From Paracoccaceae bacterium (GTDB lineage Bacteria > Pseudomonadota > Alphaproteobacteria > Rhodobacterales > Rhodobacteraceae), in NCBI GenBank assembly GCA_027492585.1, contig JAPUEK010000054.1, positions 3,485-67,484 of the forward strand: 64,000 bases of DNA, read 5' to 3'. Below the pieces are notes generated by a model. The model searched no databases and had not been told where the DNA came from. It saw only the letters and a list, made by a program, of their open reading frames with translations. Shown piece after piece: positions 3,555 through 59,256 of the stretch (positions are counted from its first letter, which is position 1; the number at the start of each line of letters is the position of its first letter). Made by a program: the position numbers and the translations under genes.

Positions 3555-3567
3555 TGGGCTCCGGCTG

Positions 3568-17940: not shown

Positions 17941-18093
17941 GGGGAAGTTTCCGATAGTGGAGCGATGCGTCGCAAATCGAAGCTGATGGGGCGCTTTAAC
18001 GCGATTTTTCCGCTTGCGCCACCCCGGCAGGGTCAATATCCACGGCGGCGGGACACCCTTCCCCAACGAAGGGCTTATATCTGCGAGGATACC

Positions 18094-42613: not shown

Positions 42614-43536
42614 AGATCATCATCGACACCGACCCCGGCATCGACGACGCGCTGGCGCTTTTCTACGCCTTCGGCTGCGGGAGGTTCGAGATCCTGGGCC
42701 TCACCGCCGTCTTCGGCAATGTGACGGTGGATCAGGCCACCGAAAACGCCATCTGGCTCTGCGAGGTCTCGGGGCAGGGGCAGATCCCGGTGGCGCGGGG
42801 CTGTGCGGCGCCGAAAAGCCCGATCACCCATCACCCGACCGTCGCCGTCCATGGTCCGAACGGGTTCGGCGCGCTGTCGCGGCGGGAGGTGCGCGGCAAG
42901 GCCCTTGCCGAGGATGCCGCCGATTTCCTGATCCGCCAGACCCGAGAGGCGCCGGGCGAGGTGGTCGTGGTGGCGCTCGGCCCGCTGACCAATATCGCCG
43001 AGGCGTTGCAGCGCGATCCGGGCTTTGCGGACCGGATCGCCCATCTCTACATCATGGGCGGGGCGTTCCGCGCACCGGGCAATGTCACGCGCTTTGCGGA
43101 GGCGAATATCCACAATGACCCGATGTCGGCCGATCTCGTCGCACGCGGGATCGCCAAGGCGACCTGGGTCGGGCTGGACGTGACGGACAAGATCGTTCTG
43201 TCGCCCGCCGATCTTGCGGCGCTTTGTGCGCCGGGAACGGAAACCTGCCGCTTCATCGCGGCGATCTCGGATTACTATCTGAAGTTCTATGCCTCGGTCG
43301 GCAAGACCGATGGGGCGGGACTGCATGATCCGGTCACGCTGATCGCCTGCCTGATGCCGGAGCTGTTCGACCTGCCGACCGGCGATCTGACCGTCACCCA
43401 TGACGGCGCGGAGCGCGGGCGGACGAACTGGACCCCCTCCGCCCATCCGCTGCGAGTCTCGACCGGCGCCGACGGGTCGGCGGTACGGGCGGAGTTCCTC
43501 TCCGTGCTGACGGAATGGCTGAAGACCCGACCCTAG
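42610..43536 (+). CDS. nucleoside hydrolase (IUNH family)
   Basis: GTG 42610 forms a GTGA overlap with the rbsK stop. N-terminal signature IIIDTDPGIDDALAL. Confidence 0.88.
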   Translation: MKIIIDTDPGIDDALALFYAFGCGRFEILGLTAVFGNVTVDQATENAIWLCEVSGQGQIPVARGCAAPKSPITHHPTVAVHGPNGFGALSRREVRGKALAEDAADFLIRQTREAPGEVVVVALGPLTNIAEALQRDPGFADRIAHLYIMGGAFRAPGNVTRFAEANIHNDPMSADLVARGIAKATWVGLDVTDKIVLSPADLAALCAPGTETCRFIAAISDYYLKFYASVGKTDGAGLHDPVTLIACLMPELFDLPTGDLTVTHDGAERGRTNWTPSAHPLRVSTGADGSAVRAEFLSVLTEWLKTRP

Positions 43537-43564
43537 GCGGCTTCGGTGGGCGGTGCGCCTCCGG

Positions 43565-43669
43565 CAGGCGCCGGAGGGGCTTTGCACCCCTCCCCCATGC
43601 CCCCGGTCCCATGAACCGATGGCGAAACCGATGGCAAACCCGCAGGATATTTCAAGACAGAAATGAAGG
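43565..43669 (+). repeat. Family B repeat, copy B4 (long form with an internal 12-nt duplication)
   Basis: caggcgccggaggggctttgcacccctcc..., then aaccgatggcga / aaccgatggcaa (tandem duplication), then acccgcaggatatttcaagacagaaatgaagg. Confidence 0.85.
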
Positions 43670-43865
43670 CTCAGGGAGCCGGGTGGGCATCTGGCCCGCA
43701 GAATGATTGGCGGTCGGCCGGGGTTCCGGGTCCGGGGTAAATCCTGTCCATTCCGGGTCTTCGGGCGGGAAAGGCGGCATTTCGCGCCTGATCGGCGCCG
43801 GTGTCCCGAGAAGGAATAGGTCCGATTTCCCGCCGCGACGCGGAGGTCCTTTCCCTCCCGCGCGC

Positions 43866-44089
43866 CCGGACGACTGGCGCGCTCCAATCCTGGCCGGGCG
43901 TCTTCCGCGCGCCCTTTCCGCTTTTTTGAAGCGCGGGAAGGGACCGCGGCAGGCATCATTGCGCCCAGCCGATCCTGCGCCGCTTCGGAGGCAAGACGAC
44001 GGTGCGGCCCGCTCTCCTTCTACAACACCCGCGAGGAGGTGGACCGCTTCATTGCGGTGATCCGGAGCCTCTCTGCCATGCGGCGCTGA
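43866..44089 (+). pseudogene. decayed 3' remnant of a SufS/CsdA-type cysteine desulfurase (class V aminotransferase)
   Basis: 43954-44017 reads HHCAQPILRRFGGKTTVRPAL. After a +1 frame change, 44018-44089 reads FYNTREEVDRFIAVIRSLSAMRR-stop. Together these reproduce the conserved SufS C-terminus (GHHCAQP...RASxxxYNTxEEVD). Weaker frame-broken similarity (PDD...IL..GVFRA) extends upstream. No intact N-terminal part exists. The 5' boundary is uncertain. Confidence 0.65.
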
Positions 44090-44468
44090 GCCGAGGGGAA
44101 GGGGGCGGAATGTCGGCGGGGAAACCTGCCGGCCTTCGGTATTCCGGGCTGCGATTCTGGCGGGTGATTTGGCGGGACGGCGCGCAGAGCTGCGGCAGGT
44201 GAGATTTTCTCTGCGGGCGCTCTGCCGCGAAAGGAGGTATTTCCTGCAACCCTGCGGCGAAGAACGGCTCTGTCGTATGGGGAAGAAACCTTCTGTGCCG
44301 CGCAGGAATTCTGGCCAGAGTCCGAAGAAAAATCTTTCACAAACCGGGCCTTGCGCCAAAGGCTGCCGCTCGATCCCCGGCAAAATAAGAAGCCCTGTTT
44401 CCTTGCGTCCCGGCTTTATATCGACTGAACTGATCGTGATTAAAAGCCGAGCAGTTCGATCAAGCAGG

Positions 44469-45476
44469 ATGCCCAAAATGCCCTATCGCATCTCCCTCCT
44501 GGACAAGAGCCCAGTCCCCGATGGCGCCACCGCCGCCGAAGCCCTCGCCACCTCTGTCGCCTATGCACAGGCGGCGGAGCGGCTGGGATATCACCGGCTC
44601 TGGGTGGCCGAGCATCACGGTACGCCGGGGCTTGCCAGCTCTGCGCCGGAGATCGTGGTGGCGCATCTTCTCGCGGCCACCCGGCACATACGCGTCGGCA
44701 CGGGCGGGGTGCTGTTGCAGCATTACAGCCCCTTCAAGGTGGCGGAGGTCTTTGGCCTGCTGGCCTCGCTGGCGCCGGGGCGGGTCGATCTGGGCATCGG
44801 AAAGGCGCCGGGCGGGCTGCCCTTCGGCACCCGCGCCTTGCAGGTGGAGCTCGCCCAGCCGCGCCGCACCTTCGAGACCAAGCTGGAGGAGCTGGAGCAG
44901 TTCCTGACCGCCAGCCTGCCGGAGAGCCATCCGCTTGCCGGGGCCGTCGCGCTGCCGCGCCCGCCGGTTCTGCCGCAGCGCTTCCTGCTCGGCGCCTCGC
45001 CCGACAGCGCGCTTCTGGCCGCGCGGCTCGGCTGGGATTTCACCTATGCCGGCCATCATGACGGCGCTCCCGAAGCGGTCGCCCTTGCGCTTGGCACCTA
45101 TGAGAAGGCCTCGGGCCGCAAGGCCTCGCTGGCGCTGGCCGCGATCATCGCGCCGACGCGGGCCGAGGCGGAGGCGGAAGGGGCGGAGCAGCGCATCCTG
45201 AAGGTGACGCTGGCCGACGGGCAAAGCGTCAACCTGCCGAACGAGGAAGCCGCCGCCGAATACGCCCGGCAGGCGGGGGGCCAGCCCTATACGGTGGCCG
45301 CCCGTCATCCTTCGGTGCTTGCCGGCACCGGCGAGGACGTGCGTGCCGCACTCGACGCGCTGCACCGCCGGCACGGTGTGGTGGAATTCATCCTCGACAT
45401 TCCCACGGCCGACCGGGCGAAGCGGCTGGCCGGGATCGAGCTTTTGGCCAAGGCCGGCCTGCGCGCCGCTGCCTGA
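44469..45476 (+). CDS. LLM-class flavin-dependent oxidoreductase (luciferase-like, group 1 / YhbW-like)
   Basis: Start at ATG 44469 or 44478. ISLLDKSPV...[29 protein letters not shown]...[41 protein letters not shown] matches the group-1 LLM N-terminal signature. Confidence 0.85.
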
Positions 45477-45490
45477 AACGGAGACAGATC

Positions 45491-46828
45491 ATGACGAACA
45501 CCATCCCCTTCGGTCTCATGCTGCACGGCCCCGGCGGCCATATGAATGCGTGGAAGCATCCTTCCGGCCCCGCCGATGCCTCGGTCAACCTGCAGTTCTA
45601 CATCGACACGGCGCAGAAGGCCGAAGCGGCGGGCATCGCCTTCGGCTTCGTGGCGGACGGGCTTTACATCAATGAAAAGTCGATCCCGCATTTCCTCAAC
45701 CGCTTCGAGCCGTTGACGATCCTGTCGGCCCTTGCGGTGGCGACGAAGAAGATCGGCCTCGCCGGAACGGTGTCCACCAGCTATTCCGACCCCTTCACCA
45801 TCGCCCGGCAATTCGCCTCGCTCGATCTGATTTCGGGCGGGCGGGCCGGGTGGAACGTGGTGACGACCCCGCTGGAGGGCAGCGCCCGCAACTATTCCCG
45901 CGCCCATCCCGATCATGCGCTGCGCTATGAGATCGCCGATGAATACCTCGCGGTCACGCAGGGGCTTTGGGACAGCTGGGACGAGGGCGCCGTGACCCGC
46001 AACCGGGAGACCGGGCAGTTCTTCGACCCCGCCGGGCTCCACCGGCTGAACCACAAGGGCCGCTTCTTTGCCGTGGAAGGGCCGCTGAACGCCCCGCGGT
46101 CGGCGCAGGGGCAGCCGGTGATCTTCCAGGCGGGGGCTTCGGGTGCCGGGATCGCCCTGGCCGGGAAGTATGCCGATGCGGTCTTCACCCATTCGGATTC
46201 GCTTGAGGAAACCATCGCCTACACCCGCAAGGTCAAGGATGCCGCGCAGGCCCATGGCCGCGCCCGCGACGATGTGAAGGTCTTCCCCGGCATCGGCCCC
46301 ATCGTCGGCCGCACCCGCGCCGAGGCGGAGGCGAAATATGAGGCGATCCGCAATCTGCTGAGCGTGGACGAGGCGCTCGCCTATCTCGGCCGCTATTTCG
46401 AGCATCACGATTTCAGCCAGTATGATCTGGATGCGGCCTTCCCCGATCTGGGCGATCTCGGCCGCAACAGCTTCCAGTCCACCACCGACCGCATCAAGGC
46501 GGATGCGAAGGAGCACGGCAAGACCCTGCGCGACGTGGCGCTGGAGGCGGCCTCGCCCCGGCCGCATTTCCTTGGAACCGGGGCGGAGGTGGCCGAAGAG
46601 ATCATCCGCTGGATCGACGCCGGGGCTTCCGACGGCTTTATCCTCGGCTTTGCGGTGCAGGCCGAGGGGCTGGAGGATTTCATCACCCTCGTCGTGCCGG
46701 AACTGGAGGCGCGGGGCCGCTACAGCCGCGATCTGCCCGGCGCCACCCTGCGCGACCATCTCGGCCTGCCCTTCCGGGTCAGCCATCATCAGGCCGGGCA
46801 AAGCGCTTCGGCCACAGCGGCGGAGTAG
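45491..46828 (+). CDS. NtaA/SnaA/DszA-family FMNH2-dependent monooxygenase (LLM class)
   Basis: 445 aa. N-terminus [18 protein letters not shown] and the overall length are typical of the NTA-monooxygenase/DszA/YxeK family. Confidence 0.85.
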
Positions 46829-46831
46829 GCG

Positions 46832-48022
46832 ATGCTCGACAGGCTCACCCATACGTCCGACCCGGAGGCGGCGATTGCCGAGGGGATCGCCCCCTTCCTC
46901 GCGCTGCGCCGGGATCTGCACCGCAACCCGGAGCTTTCGGGCAGCGAAAGGCGCACGGCGGGGATCATCGCCGGGCTGCTGCGCGACTGGGGTTATGAGG
47001 TCACGACCGGCATCGGCGGGCATGGCGTGGTCGGGCGGCTCTCGGCGGGGGAAGGCACGCGCAGCATCGGCTTGCGAGCCGATTTCGATGCCTTGCCCAT
47101 CGAGGAGGCGACCGGGCTCGACCATGCCTCGCAAGTTCCGGGCGTCATGCACGCCTGCGGCCATGACGGGCATACGGCGATCCTGCTGGCCGCCGCCCAT
47201 CACCTCGCCAAAACCCGCGCCTTCGATGGCACGGTGGTGCTGATCTTCCAGCCCGCCGAAGAGATCGGCGCGGGCGCGAAGGCGATGATCGCCGAGGGGA
47301 TCTTCACGCGCTTTCCGGTGGATGCGGTCTTTGCGCTGCACAATTGGCCGGGGGTGGCGGAGGGCCGCTGGGGCATCCTGCCCGGCCCGGTCATGGCGGC
47401 GATTGATCAGGTCAACCTGACCCTGCGCGGCAAGGGCGGCCATGGCGCCGCCCCGCAGGAAACCGTGGACCCGATCGTGGCCGCCGCCCATGCGATCGCC
47501 GCGCTGCAATCGGTGGTGGCGCGCAATGTCGATCCGCAGGAAACGGCGGTGGTCACGGTCGGCTCCATCCACGGCGGCAGCGCCTCCAATGTCATCCCCG
47601 AGACGGTGGAGGCGCGCCTCACGCTCCGCAGCTTCACCCCGGCGACGCGCGCGCTTCTGGCGGAACGGGTGCCGGCCATCCTGCGCGGGGTGGCCGAGGG
47701 CTTCGGCGCCAGGGCGGAGATCACGGTGAAACCGGGCTTCCCGCCGGTCGTCAACCATGCCGGCCCCGCCGCCCTTGCCCGAGAGGTCGCTCTGCGGCTC
47801 TTCGGGGCGGAGGCGGTGATCGCCGATTTCCGCCCCCGCACTGCCAGCGAGGATTTCGCCTGGATGCTGGAGGAACGGCCCGGCGCCTATCTGTTCATCG
47901 GCACGGGGCCGGGCGCCCCGCTGCACAGCCCCGAATACCGCTTCAACGACGCCATTCTGGCACCCGCCGCCGCCTTCTGGGTGCGGCTGGCCGAAACCTT
48001 CCTGACCGGAGACGCGCGATGA
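46832..48022 (+). CDS. M20 family amidohydrolase (hippurate hydrolase / N-acyl-amino-acid deacylase type)
   Basis: 396 aa. Motifs MHACGHDGH and FQPAEE, and the M20D architecture. Confidence 0.88.
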   Translation: MLDRLTHTSDPEAAIAEGIAPFLALRRDLHRNPELSGSERRTAGIIAGLLRDWGYEVTTGIGGHGVVGRLSAGEGTRSIGLRADFDALPIEEATGLDHASQVPGVMHACGHDGHTAILLAAAHHLAKTRAFDGTVVLIFQPAEEIGAGAKAMIAEGIFTRFPVDAVFALHNWPGVAEGRWGILPGPVMAAIDQVNLTLRGKGGHGAAPQETVDPIVAAAHAIAALQSVVARNVDPQETAVVTVGSIHGGSASNVIPETVEARLTLRSFTPATRALLAERVPAILRGVAEGFGARAEITVKPGFPPVVNHAGPAALAREVALRLFGAEAVIADFRPRTASEDFAWMLEERPGAYLFIGTGPGAPLHSPEYRFNDAILAPAAAFWVRLAETFLTGDAR

Positions 48023-48651
48023 CCGATCTGATCGTCGAAAGCACCCCTACCGCCCCCGAGGCGCAGCCCTTGGTCGAAGACCTGATCCGCGAATATGACG
48101 GACGCTACGGCACGCGGTTCAATCCCGAAGGCGCGCGGGCCGAGGTTTTCCGCTATCCGCCGGAGACCTTCGCGCGCCCGGACGGCAATTTCGTCCTGCT
48201 CTTGCGCGGGGGGCAAACCATCGGCGGCGGCGCCTTCATGCGGCTTGACGGCGAGACCGCCGAGTTCAAGCGCATCTGGACCGATCTGCGCTTCCGTCGT
48301 CAGGGGCTTGCCCGGCGGATCGTTCTGGCGCTTGAGGAAAAAGCGGCGGAGCAGGGCTATACCCGCGTCTATCTCACCACCGGCTTCCGGCAGCCGGAGG
48401 CAGTCGGGCTTTACCTCGGCCTAGGCTACCGCCCGCTTTTCGATCCGTCGGAAGACCCGGAGCTTTACCTCACCCTGCCGTTCGAGAAGCATATCGGCGC
48501 CCTTGCCGGAAAGCCCGGCACCAGCCCGCTGAAAGTGCCGGGCGTCTATCCGCCCGAGCTGGCCCATGCCGCGCCGAAGCGTCCGCCGCTGACGCGGGAA
48601 GCTCCGGGCGGCGGGCTGAGCCAGGTCCGGTTCGGGGGGGCGCTGTCGTGA
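48019..48651 (+). CDS. GNAT family N-acetyltransferase
   Basis: 210 aa. 4-nt overlaps with both neighbouring genes. GNAT core RFRRQGLARRIVLALEEKAAEQGY. Pro-rich C-terminal tail. Confidence 0.8.
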   Translation: MTDLIVESTPTAPEAQPLVEDLIREYDGRYGTRFNPEGARAEVFRYPPETFARPDGNFVLLLRGGQTIGGGAFMRLDGETAEFKRIWTDLRFRRQGLARRIVLALEEKAAEQGYTRVYLTTGFRQPEAVGLYLGLGYRPLFDPSEDPELYLTLPFEKHIGALAGKPGTSPLKVPGVYPPELAHAAPKRPPLTREAPGGGLSQVRFGGALS

Positions 48652-50441
48652 CCCTCACCTCGGATTTCACCACGACCACCGTCGCTCCCCGTCCCGCCCC
48701 GCAGGACCTGAGCCGCTTCCGCATCGTTCCCGCCCGCCACCCTGCCCGCACCTTCGGCACGGTCGTCGGGGTGATCCTGCTCGCTGCCCTGCTCAACTCC
48801 GTCTTCGGCAATCCGAAATGGGGCTGGGGTGTCTTTGCGGAATGGTTCTTTGCCGAGCCGGTGCTTTACGGCCTTGGCAAGACGCTGCTCTTGACCGCGC
48901 TCGGCGCTGTCTTCGGCTTCAGCCTCGGCACGGTGCTGGCGCTGGCGCGGGTCTCCTCCTCGCCGCTGCTTGTCGCGCTGAGCTGGGGGTTCATCTGGCT
49001 CTTCCGGTCGATCCCGCTGATCGTGCTGCTGCTGATCATCAACAACCTCGGCTATCTTTATGAGACCATCGGCATCGGCATCCCCTTTACCGGGATCAGT
49101 TTCCTGAGCTTTCCGACCACGCAGGCGATCACGCCGCTTCTGGCCGCCGTTCTGGGCCTGACGCTGAACATGGGGGCCTTCTCCGCCGAGATGATCCGCG
49201 GCGGCATCCTGTCGGTCGATCAGGGTCAGCACGAGGCGGCGGCGGCCCTCGGCCTGCCGAAAGGCCGTCAGGCCCGGCGCATCATCCTGCCGCAGGCGAT
49301 GCGGGCGATCCTGCCGACCGCGTTCAACGAGATCATCGGCTTGGCCAAAGGCACGTCGGTGGTCTACATCCTCGCCCTGCCGGAGCTGTTCTACACCATC
49401 CAGATCATCTACCGCCGCAATCTCGAGGTCATTCCGCTCCTGATGGTGGCGACGGTCTGGTATGTCGTCATCCTCTCGGTCCTGTCGGTGATCCAGTATT
49501 ACATCGAGCGGCACTATGCCCGCGGTGCGCTCCGCAATCCGCCTGCCGATGTGTTCCGCCTGGTGGCCGAGCGGCTGGGCCTGCTGCGTACCGCGAAACC
49601 CGCCCCGGTGGTGCAGGCCGCCCCGGCGCCCGTGCCTGCTGCGCCTCGCGTCGCGGCAAGCTGGACGGAAAGCCTGCCCAAAGGCGGCACGGTGGACATC
49701 CGCCATGTGTCGAAATCCTTCGGGCCGCTGCGGGTGCTGGACGATGTTTCCCTCACCGTGCCGTCGGGCAGCGTGACCGCGATCCTCGGGCAATCCGGCT
49801 CCGGCAAATCCACCCTGCTGCGGACCATCAACCACCTTGAGACGGTGGAGGAGGGCTTCATCGCCATCGACGGCGAGCTGGTCGGCTACCGTCAGGACGG
49901 CCACACGCTTTACGAGCTGAAGGAGCGCGAGATCCGCCGCCGCCGCGTCGATGTCGGCATGGTCTTCCAGCAGTTCAACCTTTTCCCGCATCTGACCGTG
50001 CTGGAGAACATCATCGAGGCACCGCTCGCGGTGCGCGGCCTGAGCCGCGACGAGGCGGAGCGTCTGGCGCGCGGTCTTCTCGCCCGTGTCGGGCTGTCGG
50101 ACAAGGCGGGCGCCTATCCGCGGCAGCTCTCGGGCGGCCAGCAGCAGCGCGTCGCCATCGCCCGGACCCTGGCGCTGAAGCCCAAGGTCCTGCTTTTCGA
50201 CGAACCGACATCCGCGCTCGATCCCGAGCTGGTGAACGAGGTTCTGGACGTGATCAAGGAACTGGCCCGCTCCGGCACCACCCTGATCATCGTCACCCAC
50301 GAAATCGGCTTTGCCCGTGAAGTCGCCGATACGATCGTCTTCATGGAACAGGGCCGGATCCTGGAGGTCGGCACACCGGAAAAGGTGTTCGGCCAACCGG
50401 ATCACCCGCGAACGGCGGAGTTCCTCGCCAAGGTGCTCTGA
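48648..50441 (+). CDS. amino-acid ABC transporter, fused permease + ATP-binding protein
   Basis: 597 aa. Residues ~1-292 are a polar-amino-acid-type permease (EAA-like loop GAFSAEMIRGGILSVDQGQHEAAAALGL). An Ala/Pro-rich linker is encoded at ~49524-49688. The C-terminal ATPase has Walker A GQSGSGKST, signature LSGGQQQR and Walker B LLFDEPTSALD. Confidence 0.9.
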   Translation: MTLTSDFTTTTVAPRPAPQDLSRFRIVPARHPARTFGTVVGVILLAALLNSVFGNPKWGWGVFAEWFFAEPVLYGLGKTLLLTALGAVFGFSLGTVLALARVSSSPLLVALSWGFIWLFRSIPLIVLLLIINNLGYLYETIGIGIPFTGISFLSFPTTQAITPLLAAVLGLTLNMGAFSAEMIRGGILSVDQGQHEAAAALGLPKGRQARRIILPQAMRAILPTAFNEIIGLAKGTSVVYILALPELFYTIQIIYRRNLEVIPLLMVATVWYVVILSVLSVIQYYIERHYARGALRNPPADVFRLVAERLGLLRTAKPAPVVQAAPAPVPAAPRVAASWTESLPKGGTVDIRHVSKSFGPLRVLDDVSLTVPSGSVTAILGQSGSGKSTLLRTINHLETVEEGFIAIDGELVGYRQDGHTLYELKEREIRRRRVDVGMVFQQFNLFPHLTVLENIIEAPLAVRGLSRDEAERLARGLLARVGLSDKAGAYPRQLSGGQQQRVAIARTLALKPKVLLFDEPTSALDPELVNEVLDVIKELARSGTTLIIVTHEIGFAREVADTIVFMEQGRILEVGTPEKVFGQPDHPRTAEFLAKVL

Positions 50442-50558
50442 CCGCCGATCAATCCCGAAACCGGCTTCATCCCAAAGAAGAAACCCGCCCGACCGGCGCC
50501 CCCGTGGCGACCGGACCGGGACGGGGCAACCCCAGAAACCCCCTCCCTCCTCAAGGAC

Positions 50559-51488
50559 ATGACCATGAAGACCCCATTGCGTAGCCTGATCCTCGGCGCC
50601 TTTGCCGCCCTTGCCTCCCTTCCGCTGCTGGCCGCCGAGCCGGATCTGTCACCCGAACAGCCCGGCCGCATCCGCGCCGAGAAGGTACAGGCGGCCATCG
50701 ACCTCATCCCCAAGGATTTCGCCTTCGTCACCCCCGGCAAGCTGACCGTGGCCACCAATCCCTGGCAGCTTCCCTTCGGCGTCTATGCCACCGACAACGC
50801 CACCCCCATCGGGGCGGAGCCGGATATCGCGCAACTCGTCGCCGACAGCCTCGGGCTGGAGCTGAACATCGTCGCCGTCGCCTGGGCCGACTGGCCGCTA
50901 GGCGTCGCCTCGGGCAAATATGATGCGGTGATCTCCAACGTCACGGTGACTGAGGAGCGCAAGGAGAAATTCGACTTCTCCACCTACCGGCAGGACCTTC
51001 TGGGCTTCTATGCGCCGAAGGACAGCAAGCTTGAGAAGATCGAGACGCCGAAGGATATCGCCGGTCTCAAGATCATCGTCGGCTCCGGCACCAATCAGGA
51101 GCAGATCCTTCTGAACTGGATCGAGGAGAACAAGGCAGCCAGCCTCGCGCCGACCGAACTGCTCTATTTCGACGATGAGGCGGCGCGGGATCTGGCGCTT
51201 TTCTCCGGGCGGGCGGATGCCTATTTCGGCCCGAACGCCGCCGAGGCCTACAAGAACTCCCTGCGGGACGACCGCAAGCTTCTGGGCAAATTCTCGGGCG
51301 GCTACCCGCTGACCGCCGAAATCGCGGTGACCACCCGCAAAGGCTCCGGTCTGGCAGAGGCGATCACGGCGGGTCTCAACGCCCAGATCGCCAATGGCAC
51401 CTATGGCAAGGTTCTTGCCCATTGGGGCATCGAATCCGAGGCGGTGACGGACTCCAAAACCAACCCGCCCGGCCTGCCGAAGCCCTGA
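50559..51488 (+). CDS. ABC transporter substrate-binding protein (family 3, polar amino acid type), paralog 1
   Basis: 309 aa with a signal peptide. Clearly paralogous to the next gene (shared blocks SGKYDAVISNV.VTEERK.K.DF.TYRQ, PKDIAGLKI..GSGT.QE.ILL.W, NPPGLPK). Confidence 0.88.
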   Translation: MTMKTPLRSLILGAFAALASLPLLAAEPDLSPEQPGRIRAEKVQAAIDLIPKDFAFVTPGKLTVATNPWQLPFGVYATDNATPIGAEPDIAQLVADSLGLELNIVAVAWADWPLGVASGKYDAVISNVTVTEERKEKFDFSTYRQDLLGFYAPKDSKLEKIETPKDIAGLKIIVGSGTNQEQILLNWIEENKAASLAPTELLYFDDEAARDLALFSGRADAYFGPNAAEAYKNSLRDDRKLLGKFSGGYPLTAEIAVTTRKGSGLAEAITAGLNAQIANGTYGKVLAHWGIESEAVTDSKTNPPGLPKP

Positions 51489-51548
51489 GCCAATGTCGCC
51501 CGCGGGCCGGTTCCGCGGGCGGTTTCCTCCTCCCCAGAAAGATCCGAC

Positions 51549-52511
51549 ATGCTCCCCCTTTCCTTCTCCCGCCGCCGGGGTCTGGCGCTTGGCCTCTCCG
51601 TCGTGCTGACCTCGCTTCTGCCGGGCCTTGCCGCGGCTGAAACCGCCCTGGCACCCGAGGTCAGCGGCCTTGCCGCCGAGCAGCCCGGCGCGCCGCATAC
51701 CAAACCCAATCCCGCGGCCATCGCGGCCCTGCCGGCGGGCTTCGCCTTCGTGACGCCGGGCAAGTTCACGGTTGCGGTTTCGGCCTTTGCGCCGCCCATC
51801 GCCACCCATGCCGTCGATGGCGAGACGGTGATCGGGGCGGACCCGGAAATCGCCCGGCTCATCGGCGAGGCGCTCGGGCTGGAGCTGGAACTGGTCACCG
51901 TCGCCTGGCCGGATTGGCCGCTCGGGGTCAGCTCCGGCAAATATGATGCGGTGATCTCCAATGTCGGCGTCACCGAAGAGCGCAAGCTGAAATATGATTT
52001 CGCCACCTACCGGCAGGGGCTGCACGGCTTCTATGTCGCCAAGGACAGCCCGATCCAGAGCATCGCCGAGCCGAAGGATATCGCCGGGCTGAAGATCGTC
52101 ACCGGCTCCGGCACCATTCAGGAGCGCATCCTGCTGGAATGGAACCGCCAGAACGCCGGGGCGGGTCTGGCGCCGGCGGAACTGCTGTTCTTCGACGATG
52201 ATGCGGCAGAGACGCTGGCGGTCCTGTCGGGGCGGGCCGATGCCAACTTCAACCCCAATGGCACTCAGGCGTGGAATTCGGCGATCACCGGCAAGACCCG
52301 CCGGGTCGGCACGGTCAATGCGGGCTGGCCGCTCAATGCCGATGTGGGCGTGGTGACGAAGAAGGACAGCGGCCTCGCGCCCGCCGTCGTCATCGCGCTG
52401 AACGGGATCTTTGCCGAGGGCGCCTATGCCAGGGTTCTGGAACGCTGGGGGCTTGGCGAGGAAGCCATTGCCGAAAGCCGCCTGAACCCGCCCGGCCTGC
52501 CGAAGTTCTGA
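51549..52511 (+). CDS. ABC transporter substrate-binding protein (family 3), paralog 2
   Basis: 320 aa. Signal peptide with an RRR-containing N-region. Tandem paralog of 50559..51488. Confidence 0.88.
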   Translation: MLPLSFSRRRGLALGLSVVLTSLLPGLAAAETALAPEVSGLAAEQPGAPHTKPNPAAIAALPAGFAFVTPGKFTVAVSAFAPPIATHAVDGETVIGADPEIARLIGEALGLELELVTVAWPDWPLGVSSGKYDAVISNVGVTEERKLKYDFATYRQGLHGFYVAKDSPIQSIAEPKDIAGLKIVTGSGTIQERILLEWNRQNAGAGLAPAELLFFDDDAAETLAVLSGRADANFNPNGTQAWNSAITGKTRRVGTVNAGWPLNADVGVVTKKDSGLAPAVVIALNGIFAEGAYARVLERWGLGEEAIAESRLNPPGLPKF

Positions 52512-52518
52512 GGCCGCG

Positions 52519-53541
52519 ATGAGCTATTCCTTCACACAGGTCGGTTTTCTCATCCCCGGAAATTTCGCGGAGGACGATCCGCTCCGCGGGCTTGAGGACA
52601 CGCTCGACATCATCGCGCGCGGCGAGGATCTGGGTTACTCCTCCGCCTGGGTCCGCCAGCGGCATCTGGAACGGGGCGTCTCCTCCGCCTCGGCCTTCCT
52701 CGGGGCGGCGAGCCAGCGGACGACGCGCATCGGGCTTGGTACGGCGGTCATCCCGCTCGGCTATGAAAACCCGTTCCGGCTGGCCGAGGATCTGGCGACG
52801 GTGGATGTGCTGTCACGCGGGCGGCTGAACATCGGGGTCAGCGCGAACCCGCCCCAGTTCGGCGCGCTGCTCGGCGATCTCCTTTATGATGGCGACCCGG
52901 CGGGCAACGACTACAGCCACGCCCGCGCCGAGCGGTTTGCCCGCGCCCTGCGGTCCGAGCCCTTGTCGGACAGGGCCGAGGCGGGCAATGCCGCAGGCGC
53001 GCAGGTTCCGCGCCTGCAACCGATCGCCAGGGGGCTGACGGAACGGCTCTGGTATGGCGGCGGTTCGCTGAAATCGGCGGAATGGTCCGGGCGCAACGGC
53101 TGGCACATGCTGACCGGCAATATCGTGACCGGCGAGGGGACCGATGATTTCCTGACCGCGCAGGGGGCGCTCATCGACCGCTTCCTTGGCCATTGGCACG
53201 GGGTGGGCGCACCGCGCATCGCCCTTGGCCGGGTGATCCTGCCGACCGACAGCGCCAGCCCCGTGCAGCGCCGCCGCTACCGCGACTACGTTGCAGCGCG
53301 CAGCCCGCGCACCCTTGGCCCGCAGGGGCCGAAACGCACCCTCTTCGGGGCGGATATCGTCGGCTCGCTCGACGAGATCCTTGAAACGCTGGCACGCGAT
53401 CCCATCGCCACCCGCGTGTCGGAGTTCCGGCTGGAGCTGCCCTATGACTTCCCCCACGAGGATTATGTTCAGATCGTCGAGGATTTCGCCCGCCTTCTGC
53501 CCGTGATCCGACCGGCTGCGCTGCCGCGCACCGGAACCTGA
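52519..53541 (+). CDS. LLM-class flavin-dependent oxidoreductase
   Basis: 340 aa. Luciferase-like TIM-barrel signature (LGYSSAWVRQRH, RIGLGTAVIPLGYENPFRLAEDLATVDVLSRGRLNIGV). Confidence 0.8.
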   Translation: MSYSFTQVGFLIPGNFAEDDPLRGLEDTLDIIARGEDLGYSSAWVRQRHLERGVSSASAFLGAASQRTTRIGLGTAVIPLGYENPFRLAEDLATVDVLSRGRLNIGVSANPPQFGALLGDLLYDGDPAGNDYSHARAERFARALRSEPLSDRAEAGNAAGAQVPRLQPIARGLTERLWYGGGSLKSAEWSGRNGWHMLTGNIVTGEGTDDFLTAQGALIDRFLGHWHGVGAPRIALGRVILPTDSASPVQRRRYRDYVAARSPRTLGPQGPKRTLFGADIVGSLDEILETLARDPIATRVSEFRLELPYDFPHEDYVQIVEDFARLLPVIRPAALPRTGT

Positions 53542-53550
53542 CCCAAGGAG

Positions 53551-53907
53551 ATGACCATGACGACACCAGCCAAGACCCGGATCGACGGGCAGACCGCCCT
53601 TGCCGCCTGGCGCGAGGGGGCGATCCTGATCGACGTGCGCTCCGAACAGGGGCGGAGCAAGAATGGCGAGGTCCAGGGCGCGATCATCGTCGCCAAAAGC
53701 GACGTGGTCGATGTCGTGACCCGCAGGCTCCGGGGACGGTCCTCCGCCCAGCCGGTGATCCTTTTCTGCGGTTCCGTCGCCGGCACCGCACCGCTGATCG
53801 AGGCGCTCGTCGCGGCGGGCGAAACCGCGGTGGCCGATGTCGAAGGCGGGGTCGCCGCCCTGACCGGAGAGAACGGCCTCGCCGTGGTGCAGGCGGTTCC
53901 GGCCTGA
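53551..53907 (+). CDS. rhodanese-like domain protein
   Basis: 118 aa. LIDVRSE...G.I.GA and the active-site loop candidate ILFCGSVAGT. Confidence 0.7.
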   Translation: MTMTTPAKTRIDGQTALAAWREGAILIDVRSEQGRSKNGEVQGAIIVAKSDVVDVVTRRLRGRSSAQPVILFCGSVAGTAPLIEALVAAGETAVADVEGGVAALTGENGLAVVQAVPA

Positions 53908-53946
53908 GCGCGCCCCTGCGCGGGCTCTTCCCTCCATCCACTGTGC

Positions 53947-53998
53947 ATAAATATCCTGCGGGGAGGTCCGGAGGGGTGCAAAACCCCTCCGGCGCCTG
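53947..53998 (-). repeat. Family B repeat, copy B5 (short form, reverse orientation)
   Basis: ataaatatcctgcggggaggtccggaggggtgcaaaacccctccggcgcctg. Its reverse complement is almost identical to the first ~50 nt of B3. Confidence 0.9.
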
Positions 53999-54027
53999 CC
54001 ACGGGCGAGCCGCCCGCCACCTGTCCC

Positions 54028-54537
54028 TCAGCCTTCCTCCGGCAGATGCACCGCGCGGCGATAGGCGCGTTGGCCGTATAGAAGCGCGGCGGGGCTTTCC
54101 GACAGCCGGATCGAGGTGACGCGGCCGATCAGGATGTGATGCGTCTCCCACAGAAGCGCTGTGGCAAGGCGGCACTCAAAGGCCGCCGTCGCACCCTCGA
54201 TCATCGGCTGGCCGCCGGCCCCCGCGCTCCACGCCGCCTTGTCGAAGCGCGCCGCCGCCTCCCCGCCGCCACGCCCGGCGAAGAGATCCGAGACCGCCTG
54301 CTGGCTTTCGGCCAGAAGGTTCGCGCAGAACATCCGGTTCTTCAGGATCGCGGCGGCAGCGGGGCTCTGGTGGTGGATGCAGGCCAGAAGCGAGGGCTGC
54401 TCCCCATCCGCCGAAACCGAGGTCAGCGAGGAGATGGTGACGCCGAAGCGCCCCGCCTCGCCATCGGTGGTGGCGACGGCCACGAAGGTCGCCGCCCGGC
54501 TCATCCCTTCCAGAAAGAGGGCGCGCAGATCGCTCAT
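54028..54537 (-). CDS. flavin reductase family protein (NAD(P)H:FMN oxidoreductase component)
   Basis: 169 aa with a Flavin_Reduct-like core (FVAVATTDGEAGRFGVTISSLTSVS...PSLLACI). Confidence 0.8.
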   Translation of the reverse strand: MSDLRALFLEGMSRAATFVAVATTDGEAGRFGVTISSLTSVSADGEQPSLLACIHHQSPAAAAILKNRMFCANLLAESQQAVSDLFAGRGGGEAAARFDKAAWSAGAGGQPMIEGATAAFECRLATALLWETHHILIGRVTSIRLSESPAALLYGQRAYRRAVHLPEEG

Positions 54538-54540
54538 GGC

Positions 54541-55884
54541 TCAGCCCAGATCGAAGAAGCGGTACAGCTCGACATCCGGCACCTTGCGGCTGAATTCGTC
54601 GAACTGGCTCTGCCGGGTGGCGGCGAAGGCGTTGACGAAGGGCGCCCCCAGCCACTCGCGCGCGAAGTCGGAGCCTTTCAGCCGCTCGATCGCCTCGGGC
54701 ATCCTGCGGGCGTAATCGGGGCCGGACTTGCCCTGGGCATGGCCGTTGCCGATGACCTCCGGCTCCGGCTCGATCTTCTCGATCATCCCGGCGACCCCGG
54801 CGGCAATCGTCGCGGCGGCGGACAGGTAGGGGTTCACATCCCCGCCCGGCAGGCGGTTCTCGACCCGCAGGGAACCCGCATCATGGCCGACGATGCGGAA
54901 GCAGGTGGTGCGGTTCTCGTAACCCCAGGTCAGACCGGGGGGCGCGAACGTGCCGGGGGCGAAGCGGCGGTAGGAATTCACCGTCGGCATGAAGACCAGC
55001 GACATGTCCCCGATATATTTCTGCAAACCGCCGAGGAAATGCTTGAAGCTTTGCGATACGCCGTTCTTCTGGCCCGCCTCGTGGAACAGCGCCTTGCCGG
55101 CCTTGTCCTTCATGCTGACATGAAGGTGGATCGACTGGCTGTCGGCATCCTCTGTCCAGCGGGGCATGAAGGTCACCGATTTCCCCTGCCGCAGGGCAAG
55201 GGCGCGGATGAAATTCTTCAGAAGCATCAACTGGTCGGCCGGTTCCAGCCCCTCGCCCGCGCCGATGCAGGCCTCCATGAAGCCCGCGCCGATTTCCTCG
55301 TGCATCTTGGCAAGGTCGATGCGGAGCGGCTCGCAGATCTCGGCAAGGGCCTCGTACCATTCGGTCTGCACCACCTGATACAGCGTCAGATCGTGGCTCG
55401 CGTGCATGGTCGCGGTGTTGAGGTTGCGATACCCCTTGGCCCGCGCGCTTTCGGGGGTCTCGTTGAAGAGCGTGTATTCCAGCTCCATCCCGTATTTCGG
55501 CACGAAACCCGCCTCTGCCGCGCGGTCCAGCACCGACTTCAGGATCGAGCGCGGGCAGAGCGCCGCCGAGGCCCCGCTGTATTGCGTGAGCAGCAGGAGG
55601 TCGTAGCCCGGCTTCGACCACGGCAGGCGGCGGGCCGAGGCGGGGTCCACGATCAGGGGATCGTCGTGGAAATCCCCGGTGTCGTCGTTCACCCCCGGCA
55701 TCGACAGCATGGCATCGGTCGGGTCCAGCGAAAGCTGTGCCGGGGCCATGCCCATGCCGTTCTTCAGGATGCCCTGCAGGCTGCGGGCCGACACCATCTG
55801 ACCGCGCAGGAGCCCGTTGGTATCGGCCAGGGCCACGGTGGCAAAGCGGCTGGCGGGGTCGTTCAGGAAAGTCTCGAGCGTCAT
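54541..55884 (-). CDS. glutamine synthetase family protein (gamma-glutamyl-amine ligase type, PuuA-like)
   Basis: 447 aa. GS catalytic-domain motifs GMELEYTLF, IHLHVS, NSYRR and ENR. Confidence 0.85.
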   Translation of the reverse strand: MTLETFLNDPASRFATVALADTNGLLRGQMVSARSLQGILKNGMGMAPAQLSLDPTDAMLSMPGVNDDTGDFHDDPLIVDPASARRLPWSKPGYDLLLLTQYSGASAALCPRSILKSVLDRAAEAGFVPKYGMELEYTLFNETPESARAKGYRNLNTATMHASHDLTLYQVVQTEWYEALAEICEPLRIDLAKMHEEIGAGFMEACIGAGEGLEPADQLMLLKNFIRALALRQGKSVTFMPRWTEDADSQSIHLHVSMKDKAGKALFHEAGQKNGVSQSFKHFLGGLQKYIGDMSLVFMPTVNSYRRFAPGTFAPPGLTWGYENRTTCFRIVGHDAGSLRVENRLPGGDVNPYLSAAATIAAGVAGMIEKIEPEPEVIGNGHAQGKSGPDYARRMPEAIERLKGSDFAREWLGAPFVNAFAATRQSQFDEFSRKVPDVELYRFFDLG

Positions 55885-55896
55885 GGGGGCAAATCC

Positions 55897-56580
55897 TCAG
55901 AGGGCTGCGGGAGAGGGCTGGGGAAGCGGGGCGGTCAGGCGGGACAGGCTGGCAAGATCGGTAGCGGGATCGGTGGAATAGGCGCGCAGGAAGACCCTGA
56001 GGCCATTGGTGATCGACCGGGCAAGTTCGGCGCGGGTCGGCACCGCATCGGGAATGTGCAGCGCCCGGTTGCGCGGGGCGGAAAGGACAAGGCCCCAGAG
56101 GTCCTCGGCGGCCAGATCCGCCTCCTCGAAGGCAAGCCGTCCCGCTGCTCGCTGGCGGGTCAGGTAGGCGACCATCCCCGCCAGAACCCGGTCCGGTCCG
56201 GAGGCCTGATAGGCGCGGCCGATATCGGGGAACCTTTGCGCTTCGCCGATGATCAGCCGGGCGAGCGACAGGAATTCCGGCCGCATCACGGTTTCGGCGT
56301 AATGCCAGGCAAAGCCGTGCAGCTCCGCCACCATGCCGCCCGAAGGCGCCTCGAAAACCGCGAGCATCTGGTCGCGCCCCTGTGTCAGGATGGCGGTGAA
56401 GAGCGCCTCCTTGGAAGGGAAATACTGATAGAGCGTCGGCTTCGACAGACCGGCGCGGGCGGCGATGTCATCCATCACCGCGCCGGAATAGCCGGTCTGC
56501 GAAAAGACCTGCAAAGCGGCTTCAAGGATGCGGGCTTCGCGCAGCAGGCGGTTCTGCTGGCGGCGGGGCAGGTCGGTCAT
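55897..56580 (-). CDS. TetR/AcrR family transcriptional regulator
   Basis: 227 aa from ATG 56580, which forms an ATGA overlap with the upstream gene's stop. HTH region GYSGAVMDDIAARAGLSKPTLYQYFPSKEALF. The upstream part of track ORF ..57105 was rejected. Confidence 0.88.
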   Translation of the reverse strand: MTDLPRRQQNRLLREARILEAALQVFSQTGYSGAVMDDIAARAGLSKPTLYQYFPSKEALFTAILTQGRDQMLAVFEAPSGGMVAELHGFAWHYAETVMRPEFLSLARLIIGEAQRFPDIGRAYQASGPDRVLAGMVAYLTRQRAAGRLAFEEADLAAEDLWGLVLSAPRNRALHIPDAVPTRAELARSITNGLRVFLRAYSTDPATDLASLSRLTAPLPQPSPAAL

Positions 56581-57866
56581 GGGGCCAGCCTTGCGAAGAA
56601 ATCCGTCAGCAGGGCGTTGTAGGCGGCCGGTTCCTCGACATTGCAGACATGGCCCGCACCGGGGATGACCTCGAAGCGCACATCGGCGCGCGGGGCGGTC
56701 TCGGCGATGCGGGCAGAGACGGCACGGATCTCGGCGGGTGGGGCGAGGCGGTCGAACTCCCCGGTCATCATCAGCACCGGCATGGTGAGGCGCGCGAAGT
56801 CGAGCCGTTCCAGTGGGTTGGTGAAACAGACGAGCGCATCGCGGTAGGTCGCCGCCGGGATCGCCGACATGGAGGCCAGAAGCGCGTCGCGCACCGCCTG
56901 CGAGGCACCGGGAGAGGCGAGCACCTTGACCACGGCGGGGGCGAAATCGGCCGGAACCTGCCCCGCGTTCAGCGGCACCTCGCGCGAGACGCGGAAGGCC
57001 TCGCGTTCTTCCGGCCCGGCCTCCGACATGCCGGTGCAGCCGCCGGACAGGACCAGACCCGCCAGCCTTTCGGGATGGCGCGTGGCGAAGGAGGTGGCGA
57101 TCCACGAACCGTAGGAGAGGCCGCAGAGCACCAGTTGCTCTGCGCCAAGCGCCTCGGCCACGCGCAGGATGTCATCGCAGTAATCGTCCACCGTCGATTG
57201 CCGGAAGCCGAGCGAGCTGTCGCCGTAGCCGCGCAGATCAAGTGCTGCGGCCCGCATCACCGGGGCTGTGGCGGCAAGCTGCGCGTCCCAGTTGCCGCGC
57301 CCGCCGCCGATGCCGTGCAGGAAAAGGCAGAGCGGGCCGGGTCGGGGGGGCGTCACGGTCAGCGCCAGCCGGGGGGTGGCGTCGAGCACCATCGGCTCCA
57401 GGGCCGCAGAGGGCGTCGGAGCGGGGGGTGTCGGGGCAGGCGTCTCGGTCGCGGCGGCGGCGAGAGCGGCGATCCCCGCCTCGAAGATCGCACGGGTGCC
57501 GTCGGCGATCGCCTTGGCCCGCGCGGCGGGGGCGGCGATGCGGGCGGTCCAGTTGATCACCGTGCCGCCCTCCTCGGCGGCTGCGATGGTCAGGCGGGCG
57601 TCATAGCTTTCCACCCCCTCGATGCCTTGCAGATGGGTATAGGCATAGCTGCGGTCGCTGTCGGAAAACCACGTCAACTGCTCGCGGTAGAGCGTCTCTT
57701 CGCCATGGGTGGTGAAGGCGCGGACCCGTGCGCCGTGCGGCCCGCGTTCGGCGCGGATCGTTGCCATGGCGGGATGCCAGAGACCGCAGAAGTCCCGTGC
57801 CACGGCCCAGACGGCGGCAGGCTCCGCCGCCGCGAAGCCGATGACATGGACGGCTTCGCGTGCCAT
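56577..57866 (-). CDS. fusion protein: N-terminal SRPBCC (START/polyketide-cyclase-like) domain + C-terminal alpha/beta hydrolase
   Basis: 429 aa. Residues ~1-140 look SRPBCC-like (...VWAVARDFCGLWHP...). A Pro/Thr/Ala linker TETPAPTPPAPTPSA is encoded at ~57372-57440. The hydrolase part has the oxyanion-like LFLHGIGGG and the nucleophile elbow GLSYGS. Confidence 0.7.
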   Translation of the reverse strand: MAREAVHVIGFAAAEPAAVWAVARDFCGLWHPAMATIRAERGPHGARVRAFTTHGEETLYREQLTWFSDSDRSYAYTHLQGIEGVESYDARLTIAAAEEGGTVINWTARIAAPAARAKAIADGTRAIFEAGIAALAAAATETPAPTPPAPTPSAALEPMVLDATPRLALTVTPPRPGPLCLFLHGIGGGRGNWDAQLAATAPVMRAAALDLRGYGDSSLGFRQSTVDDYCDDILRVAEALGAEQLVLCGLSYGSWIATSFATRHPERLAGLVLSGGCTGMSEAGPEEREAFRVSREVPLNAGQVPADFAPAVVKVLASPGASQAVRDALLASMSAIPAATYRDALVCFTNPLERLDFARLTMPVLMMTGEFDRLAPPAEIRAVSARIAETAPRADVRFEVIPGAGHVCNVEEPAAYNALLTDFFARLAP

Positions 57867-59173: not shown

Positions 59174-59256
59174 GGTCTTTCCCTGTTCAGAATGGATGTG
59201 CGGAAGCAGGCGGGCCAGCCGGTCGGCGGTCCGCAGGCAGAAAGGGTGGGGCGGGG

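Follow-up and report, generated by a model that had tools for sequence, protein, structure and literature searches.

The window analysed here (i.e., a 64,000-nucleotide stretch of contig JAPUEK010000054.1 from a Paracoccaceae bacterium) contains a nine-gene operon on its + strand that probably serves the salvage of cysteine from S-alkylated cysteines during sulfur starvation, by a protect-oxygenate-deprotect route like that of the Cmo pathway of Bacillus subtilis. Homology, clade placement, conserved gene order and a sulfur-poor composition were observed directly; the catalytic steps, substrates and regulation described below are predicted from them. The first-pass annotation of this DNA had proposed the salvage of an S-substituted amino acid, which is now supported in silico by homology to CmoJ, CmoO and SndA, by the position of the key monooxygenase in the CmoJ clade and by the depletion of cysteine (Cys) and methionine (Met) in the encoded proteins. 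The list of open reading frames (ORFs) of the window and searches against Pfam and NCBIfam identified nine intact, co-directional ORFs at 44478-53907 (+) and confirmed the domains named in that annotation:

44478-45476, + strand: LLM1, a CmoO-like FMNH2-dependent luciferase-like monooxygenase (LLM); TIGR03558 'group 1' LLM, 319 bits
45491-46828, + strand: CmoJ-like monooxygenase of the NtaA/DmoA family; TIGR03860, 499 bits
46832-48022, + strand: M20 (ILR1/YxeP-type) amidohydrolase; Pfam M20 and M20_dimer
48019-48651, + strand: GNAT N-acetyltransferase; Pfam Acetyltransf_1
48648-50441, + strand: fused polar-amino-acid ABC importer; BPD_transp_1 at residues 90-289, ABC_tran at residues 364-522
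50559-51488, + strand: substrate-binding protein SBP1 (family 3); SBP_bac_3, signal peptide
51549-52511, + strand: substrate-binding protein SBP2, a paralogue of SBP1; SBP_bac_3, signal peptide
52519-53541, + strand: LLM3, an accessory luciferase-like monooxygenase; Pfam Bac_luciferase
53551-53907, + strand: single-domain rhodanese; Pfam Rhodanese, 28 bits versus a cut-off of 22

The intergenic spacings across the nine genes, from 5' to 3', are +14, +3, -4, -4, +117, +60, +7 and +9 nt. The tiny gaps or 4-nt overlaps first described are thus found at most junctions (-4 to +14 nt), but not on the two sides of the first binding-protein gene, where the gaps are 117 and 60 nt. Between the two candidate starts of LLM1, the ATG at 44478 is more likely than position 44469, which had been given initially, because AGGA is found 9 nt upstream of 44478, the gene call in an identical public contig (locus L001) agrees with it and homologues align from residue 1. 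A longer first-gene ORF (44169-45476) was rejected, as its extension contained five Cys and three Met and lacked homology. The arrangement goes far beyond what chance would produce: dozens of genomes, belonging to three classes of Proteobacteria, show the same gene order.

BLASTP comparisons were made with two reference operons, ytmI-ytnM of B. subtilis (L005) and yxeK-Q of B. halotolerans (L006). The monooxygenase encoded at 45491 was 55% identical to B. subtilis CmoJ and 44% identical to YxeK, while CmoJ and YxeK were 48% identical to each other. Against protein structures in PDB, it scored 582 bits to 3SDO, 519 to YtnJ/CmoJ, 243 to DszA, 214 to DmoA and 195 to the ethylenediaminetetraacetate (EDTA) monooxygenase EmoA (5dqp), which served as the proxy for NtaA in the aminopolycarboxylate comparison. 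In a distance-based neighbor-joining (NJ) tree (100 bootstraps, 439 trimmed columns), the window enzyme and ten proteobacterial orthologues joined eight CmoJ proteins of Firmicutes with a bootstrap value of 99, while YxeK formed a separate clade (bootstrap 92) with two proteobacterial paralogues from the fetched loci. Only two alignment columns qualified as discriminating between CmoJ and YxeK. By homology, the 45491 enzyme is predicted to cleave the C-S bond of an N-acetyl-S-alkylcysteine sulfoxide.

These comparisons make it most improbable that the operon catabolizes an N-substituted amino acid, an aminopolycarboxylate (i.e., nitrilotriacetate [NTA] or EDTA) or another acetylated amino acid for carbon or nitrogen, with no link to sulfur. 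Such a role would agree with the database name 'nitrilotriacetate monooxygenase' (PDB 3sdo, JGI annotations) and with the sub-threshold matches of the M20 enzyme to DoeB2 and of the ATPase half of the importer to EhuA, both of which are ectoine-pathway proteins. However, all matches to the ectoine families are below the curated cut-offs, and the clade check proposed in the first-pass annotation placed the monooxygenase outside the aminopolycarboxylate group and on the CmoJ side (bootstrap 99; 519 bits for CmoJ versus 195 for EmoA). The extreme depletion of Cys and Met would also have no rationale in such a role, and the accessory neighbours of the operon in other genomes are sulfur genes. PDB 3SDO, a 'nitrilotriacetate monooxygenase' of Burkholderia pseudomallei solved by structural genomics, is the closest solved structure and aligns with residues 5-435 of the window enzyme; it was named by homology alone. 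Other Burkholderia species contain the monooxygenase of this gene set at 72-76% identity to the window enzyme, and the NTA name of 3SDO is probably a misnomer for its clade.

The Scm/Yxe operon (yxeKLMNOPQ), which mediates the breakdown of S-(2-succino)cysteine (2SC), follows the same acetylate-oxygenate-deacetylate logic and has the same general architecture (i.e., a GNAT, an NtaA-family monooxygenase, an M20 enzyme and a polar amino-acid ABC importer), with identities of 44% for the monooxygenase, 39% for the M20 enzyme and 48% for the ATPase. In addition, some proteins of the CmoJ clade are called 'N-acetyl-S-(2-succino)cysteine monooxygenase' by JGI (P0233). It is nevertheless very unlikely that the window operon disposes of 2SC in the YxeK manner, by which the monooxygenase would attack N-acetyl-2SC directly to give oxaloacetate and N-acetylcysteine. 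The window monooxygenase falls within the CmoJ clade and outside the YxeK clade, which has proteobacterial members of its own; the gene for a CmoO-like sulfoxidase, which the yxe operon lacks, is adjacent to the monooxygenase gene in 70 of the 74 loci described below; no gene for YxeQ (MmgE/PrpD) is found in the window operon; and the GNATs of the two systems share only their fold. Moreover, YxeK orthologues were reported to be rare (PMC9706529), whereas the genomic matches to the family of the window monooxygenase number at least 563, which makes this family abundant. The initial likening of the cluster to both the ytm and the yxe operons therefore stands for Cmo (ytm) specifically and not for yxe/scm.

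Paralogues 43-44% identical to the window enzyme were found in Falsirhodobacter (L013 18405-19703) and Roseateles (L075 4857-6182). As these grouped with B. halotolerans YxeK (bootstrap 92), true YxeK-type enzymes do exist in Proteobacteria, where they are sometimes encoded only a few kb from the CmoJ-type gene set. Some Burkholderia (L057, L060 and L071, which are on one contig of Burkholderia sp. BCC0044, and L038 and L046) possess several copies of the monooxygenase per replicon. They also have a second CmoJ-clade paralogue, which is 54-58% identical and branches with the Firmicutes CmoJ proteins with modest NJ support (61-73%). Together, these copies and paralogues suggest an expansion of the monooxygenase family.

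The enzymes that would act before and after the monooxygenase also have counterparts in the Cmo pathway. LLM1 is 41% identical to CmoO over its full length (331 aa; E 4e-81), and CmoO itself scores 346 bits to TIGR03558, the NCBIfam subfamily of LLM1. LLM1 is predicted to be a sulfoxide-forming N-acetyl-S-alkylcysteine S-oxygenase. Comparison of the M20 enzyme with SndA and YxeP, as the first-pass annotation had outlined, gave 40% identity to SndA/YtnL and 39% to YxeP; its best PDB match is YxeP (249 bits), with the metal motif MHACGHD aligned. SndA and YxeP (i.e., ScmP) are proven N-acetylcysteine deacetylases (PMC12757645), and the same activity is predicted for the window M20 enzyme.

The amino acid composition of the encoded proteins is a signature that independently supports a role in sulfur limitation. 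The proteins of the cassette (i.e., the operon and its relatives in other genomes) have a median of 0.46% Cys+Met in the window (eight ORFs, without the rhodanese, which was not called). The 42 other ORFs called there have 3.47%, a difference with p=1.3e-8 by the Mann-Whitney test. Apart from the initiator, LLM1 (332 aa) and SBP2 (320 aa) contain neither Cys nor Met. The monooxygenase (445 aa), GNAT (210 aa), importer (597 aa), SBP1 (309 aa) and LLM3 (340 aa) have no Cys, and their Met residues number two, one, six, one and one, respectively. The sole Cys of the M20 enzyme lies in the MHACGHD metal motif, and that of the rhodanese is the active-site residue. In the 80 loci examined, the orthologues contain 0.3-1.0% Cys+Met (2.1% in M20), compared to 3.1% in other ORFs. 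The Cmo enzymes are likewise sulfur-poor, with 0.9-1.2% Cys+Met in CmoO, CmoJ and SndA. According to a passage in PMC2932507 (citing Baudouin-Cornu 2001 and Fauchon 2002), starvation for an element leads to proteins poor in that element. The flavin reductase and the glutamine-synthetase (GS)-like protein encoded downstream on the other strand are not depleted (3.6 and 4.5% Cys+Met, respectively) and therefore mark the boundary of the operon. This test is a cheap, sequence-only way of marking the boundaries of sulfur-starvation operons. Elsewhere in the window, two large ORFs of 1169 and 679 aa at 45-5607 (+) are also rather low in Cys+Met (1.9 and 1.5%, respectively).

When species-representative genomes were scanned with two conserved peptides, at least 563 relatives were confirmed, and the best 80 loci among them were examined; the component counts given here are those of the 74 fully visible loci among the 80. 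The 80 loci are found in Alphaproteobacteria (Paracoccaceae, Bosea, Chelatococcus and Roseomonas), Betaproteobacteria (Acidovorax, Variovorax, Rhodoferax, Burkholderia, Paraburkholderia, Aquitalea and Vogesella) and Gammaproteobacteria (Stenotrophomonas and Pseudoxanthomonas). The cassette is thus pan-proteobacterial, and its description as an alphaproteobacterial counterpart of the Bacillus operons was too narrow. Among the matches listed, its closest relatives are those of Tabrizicola, Fuscibacter and Paracoccaceae. The GNAT is encoded in all 74 loci, LLM1 in 73 (in 70 of which its gene immediately precedes that of the monooxygenase), and the fused importer and at least one binding protein in 72 each; at least two binding proteins are found in 50 loci, the M20 enzyme in 38 and LLM3, usually at the 3' end, in 36. 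The rhodanese accompanies four of the 74 loci and two additional truncated ones, all of which are from Rhodobacteraceae, and it was not found with the cassette outside this family among the loci examined. Homologues of the flavin reductase and of the GS-like gene are found in none (0/74 each).

The order of eight genes is matched exactly in Acidovorax sp. GW101-3H11 (LUKZ01000031.1; cassette at L002 8965-18283), with 55-78% identity to the window proteins. The cassette is also found on plasmids and chromids. In the NJ tree, the enzymes of the alphaproteobacterial Bosea and Chelatococcus grouped with betaproteobacterial ones (bootstrap 100), which points to horizontal spread of the cassette. 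The 398-kb plasmid pOT1-1 of Haematobacter massiliensis (L087 17176-18198) contains the same eight-gene cassette, after which a CysK/CysM-family gene (TIGR01136, 282 bits, below the cut-off) overlaps the end of LLM3 by 4 nt, at the position of the rhodanese in the window. Other neighbours include genes for an SsuE-type FMN reductase and a DUF3088 protein directly upstream of the cassette in Stenotrophomonas, SsuD-like and SsuA-like genes in Burkholderia (with a TauD-like gene in one Burkholderia) and a gene for a PatB C-S lyase in Bosea. At 19 loci, which are mostly of the Burkholderia type without M20, a gene of the AstE/AspA family (succinylglutamate desuccinylase/aspartoacylase) is located 1-2 kb upstream of the GNAT gene (e.g., L061 5745-6779), and its product may be a substitute deacetylase in the Burkholderia-type cassettes.

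In contrast to the three enzymes discussed above, the GNAT is not an orthologue of its Bacillus counterparts. It has the conserved motifs RRQGLA and TTGxRQPEA, but BLASTP found no match between it and SnaA or YxeL at E<=1, and alignment of its profile with that of SnaA and YxeL by hhalign covered only the 92-column GNAT core, with 24% identity and a probability of 90.6%. The GNAT is thus an analogue of SnaA/YxeL, and the parallel drawn in the first-pass annotation holds for the type of enzyme but not for orthology. It looks like a non-orthologous replacement of SnaA whose function may be the same, and it is predicted to N-acetylate the imported S-substituted cysteine. The importer, for which the PGAP name is 'amino acid ABC transporter permease/ATP-binding protein', joins permease and ATPase in one polypeptide. 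By BLASTP, its ATPase half is 48% identical to TcyN and YxeO, and its permease half is 34-36% identical to TcyL/M, or 33-36% when YxeN is included. SBP1 and SBP2, both with signal peptides, are 53.5% identical to each other. SBP1 is 63% identical to SBP1 of Acidovorax, and SBP2 is 64% identical to Acidovorax SBP2 versus 52% to Acidovorax SBP1, so that SBP2 forms an orthologue group of its own. SBP1 is 24% identical to TcyJ, and the two binding proteins are both about 24% identical to TcyJ/K.

The features of the uptake and acetylation proteins bear on whether the same chemistry could instead release sulfur from another thioether amino acid, such as methionine or its sulfoxide (to N-acetylhomocysteine), lanthionine, djenkolate or a glutathione-derived conjugate. 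We consider this unlikely, since the nearest characterised relatives, i.e., the CmoO/CmoJ pair and SndA/ScmP, all act on cysteine derivatives (PMC10863075, PMC12757645) and since the CysK/M-like and PatB-like neighbours in other genomes point to cysteine. On the other hand, the low identity of the binding proteins to TcyJ/K, their scores far below the cystine-binder cut-off (61 bits versus 312) and the origin of the GNAT from a lineage other than that of SnaA/YxeL would fit a different substrate, the presence of LLM3 and of two conserved SBP orthologue groups hints at several classes of substrate, and ScmP has minor activity on N-acetylmethionine (PMC12757645).

The two remaining proteins, LLM3 and the rhodanese, have no significant BLASTP match in the Bacillus operons. 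LLM3 also reaches no NCBIfam cut-off. Its closest structure is 8K74 (101 bits with a profile), a Klebsiella LLM with claimed poly(acrylate) activity, which was dropped as giving no usable lead to function; that LLM3 is a second S-oxygenase is our guess. The rhodanese ORF has a coding-type pattern of G+C at the three codon positions (0.71/0.53/0.86), and an antisense ORF (53469-54020) in its place was rejected on the basis of codon-position G+C and conservation. In the rhodaneses of six Rhodobacteraceae loci, all of which follow LLM3, the motif FCGSVAG(T/S) with the active-site Cys is invariant. Because it is last in the operon, has kept only its catalytic Cys and is conserved at this position in six Rhodobacteraceae genomes, the rhodanese is the obvious candidate for a thiol partner, which may take charge of the product, be it a sulfenic acid or a thiol.

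In B. subtilis, S-alkylcysteine is N-acetylated, CmoO converts the product to the sulfoxide, and CmoJ cleaves the latter to an aldehyde and N-acetylcysteine sulfenic acid, which is reduced before deacetylation by SndA, ScmP or YhaA (PMC10863075, PMC10221552, PMC12757645). In the route proposed for the window operon, the fused permease-ATPase, as a homodimer, would receive S-substituted cysteines from the two periplasmic binding proteins. The likely imports are cysteines with an S-methyl, S-benzyl or S-carboxyalkyl group, or the sulfoxides of these, and cystine is possible. After N-acetylation of the imported amino acid by the GNAT, LLM1 would use FMNH2 and O2 to form the sulfoxide, and the CmoJ-like monooxygenase would cleave the alkyl C-S bond to give an aldehyde and N-acetylcysteine sulfenic acid. 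A thiol partner, here probably the rhodanese in place of the glutaredoxin-like CmoI, would then reduce the sulfenic acid, and the M20 enzyme would deacetylate N-acetylcysteine to cysteine. FMNH2 would be supplied by a flavin reductase encoded elsewhere, and LLM3, if it is indeed a second S-oxygenase, would probably broaden the substrate range.

The B. subtilis Cmo operon consists of snaA-tcyJKLMN-cmoO-cmoI-cmoJ-ribR-sndA-ytnM (formerly ytmI-ytnM) and serves S-alkylcysteine salvage. This operon and that of the window both have a TIGR03558 LLM next to a CmoJ-clade monooxygenase, an SndA-like M20 enzyme and a GNAT, and in both an importer of the polar amino-acid ABC family is accompanied by two binding proteins. 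Judged by sequence, the two systems share their three central enzymes by descent. The window operon differs, however, in its GNAT, which is not orthologous to SnaA, in its binding proteins, which have diverged to about 24% identity, and in its single fused importer, compared to the separate TcyL, TcyM and TcyN. It also lacks CmoI, RibR, the TauE-like YtnM and an adjacent LysR regulator (YtlI in Bacillus), has a different gene order, and contains LLM3 and the terminal rhodanese in addition. The rhodanese is found where CmoI would be; some other genomes have DUF3088. The Ssu, Msu, Sfn and Tau systems are sulfate-starvation-induced two-component systems that combine FMNH2-dependent monooxygenases of the LLM family with ABC importers for organosulfur compounds, and Ssu-/Tau-like genes physically adjoin the cassette in Burkholderia and Stenotrophomonas. 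While these systems release sulfite from sulfonates or sulfones, the window system is predicted to keep the sulfur reduced, to yield cysteine and to need acetylation and deacetylation.

Several points weigh against the proposed salvage of cysteine from S-alkylated cysteines. An identity of 55% to CmoJ leaves substrate specificity unfixed, as YxeK and CmoJ, at 48% identity, differ in their substrates, and the imported compound is unconstrained because the binding proteins are so distant from TcyJ/K. The GNAT is not the SnaA/YxeL orthologue, LLM3 is without an assigned role, and about half of the cassettes lack the M20 enzyme, which is present in just 38 of 74. The operon encodes neither a CmoI homologue, by BLASTP against the Bacillus operons, nor a flavin reductase. 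Secreted proteins are generally sulfur-poor (PMC2932507); thus, the composition argument rests mainly on the cytoplasmic enzymes and is weaker for the binding proteins. In the literature searched, we found no experiment on any proteobacterial member, no fitness data for the cassette of Acidovorax GW101-3H11, and no account of the proteobacterial architecture, the sulfur-purged composition or the variable end-pieces. Most likely, the operon serves to take up S-substituted cysteines that are damaged or of plant origin and to regain cysteine from them when sulfur runs short; as the proteobacterial counterpart of a pathway for which B. subtilis alone has provided proof, it is sound but unsurprising.

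The flanks of the operon contain the following additional features:

44420-44444, + strand: conserved upstream motif ATCGACTGAACTGATCGTGATTAAA, an imperfect dyad (ATATCGA-N9-TCGTGAT) 34-58 nt upstream of the ATG at 44478
53968-53992, no strand assigned: GC-rich 10-bp hairpin CCGGAGGGGT-GCAAA-ACCCCTCCGG in the 120-bp gap between the convergent operons
54028-54537, - strand: flavin reductase (Flavin_Reduct) in the convergent operon

The 25-nt motif is the sole match in the window at up to three mismatches, with 0 expected by chance. In Tabrizicola, Fuscibacter and UBA1943, an exact copy precedes the orthologue of the first gene, within intergenic DNA that has otherwise diverged. It is a candidate operator or promoter element. 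The hairpin is the only long helix in both the minimum-free-energy and the centroid fold of 53900-54035 (region z-score -2.3), no T-run lies beside it on either strand, and it is a possible terminator. A sigma-70 promoter scan of 43500-57200 gave no matches, and an Rfam search of the window found no riboswitch or leader upstream of the operon at the gathering threshold; the only match in the window at that threshold is a serC leader (RF00517) at 18046-18097 (+), with 66 bits and E 2e-12. Among the Pfam/NCBIfam-annotated ORFs, no regulator is found within the nine-gene operon. The earlier remark that no regulator is encoded next to the cluster needs a minor correction, as a TetR gene (55897-56562, -) is located about 2 kb away, but in the convergent operon. 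That annotation had also noted a cysteine-desulfurase remnant, and a short frame at 44003-44089 (+), ending in '...GPLSFYNTREEVDRFIAVIRSLSAMRR*', is found in the 940-bp gap before the operon. It resembles the C-terminus of a SufS/CsdA-type cysteine desulfurase; without an upstream body and with in-frame stops, it is apparently a gene remnant. The G+C content of the window is about 68%, with a peak of 0.748 at 36001-38000 (versus about 0.68 elsewhere) inside an ORF of 1151 aa (35134-38589).

The convergent operon (54028-59731, -) encodes an ACAD-fold protein (weakly SfnB/DszC/HsaA-like), an SRPBCC-alpha/beta-hydrolase fusion, the TetR protein, the GS-like ligase, which resembles gamma-glutamylputrescine synthetase below the cut-off, and the RutF/HpaC-type flavin reductase. 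From these annotations, the convergent operon seems to encode a two-component flavin pathway of its own, with a gamma-glutamylated amine as the substrate. The flavin reductase is indeed present across the convergent junction, as first noted, but it was rejected as a dedicated partner and part of the cassette: on the opposite strand, it lies 3 nt from the GS-like gene, it is not depleted in Cys and Met, and it is absent from all 74 loci. A more likely partner of the flavin reductase is the ACAD-fold enzyme encoded in its own operon.

A bolder proposal, which we regard as possible but doubtful, is that the cassette is a horizontally mobile, sulfur-purged module in which an interchangeable thiol or sulfur partner (the rhodanese here; DUF3088, CysK/M-like or PatB proteins elsewhere) replaces the CmoI step, and in which LLM3 is a second S-oxygenase paired with SBP2 for a class of substrates that the Bacillus pathway does not handle. 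This added class could include, for example, the sulfoxide of opposite stereochemistry or carboxyalkyl conjugates. If so, the rhodanese fold would have a new role in cysteine salvage, that of reducing or accepting a sulfenic acid.

The standard annotation of the cassette is generic, i.e., 'LLM class flavin-dependent oxidoreductase', 'MsnO8 family' and 'M20 aminoacylase' in RefSeq, or else the misleading 'nitrilotriacetate monooxygenase'. If the salvage role proposed here is correct, it would bear on the annotation of sulfate-starvation regulons, on sulfur supply from plant-derived and detoxification-derived thioethers and on CmoJ-type Pummerer biocatalysis. Hundreds of soil, rhizosphere, freshwater and clinical Proteobacteria, including Burkholderia, Stenotrophomonas, Variovorax, Acidovorax, rhizobia and Paracoccaceae, would then possess an O2-dependent means of recovering cysteine from alkylated cysteines without oxidizing the sulfur.

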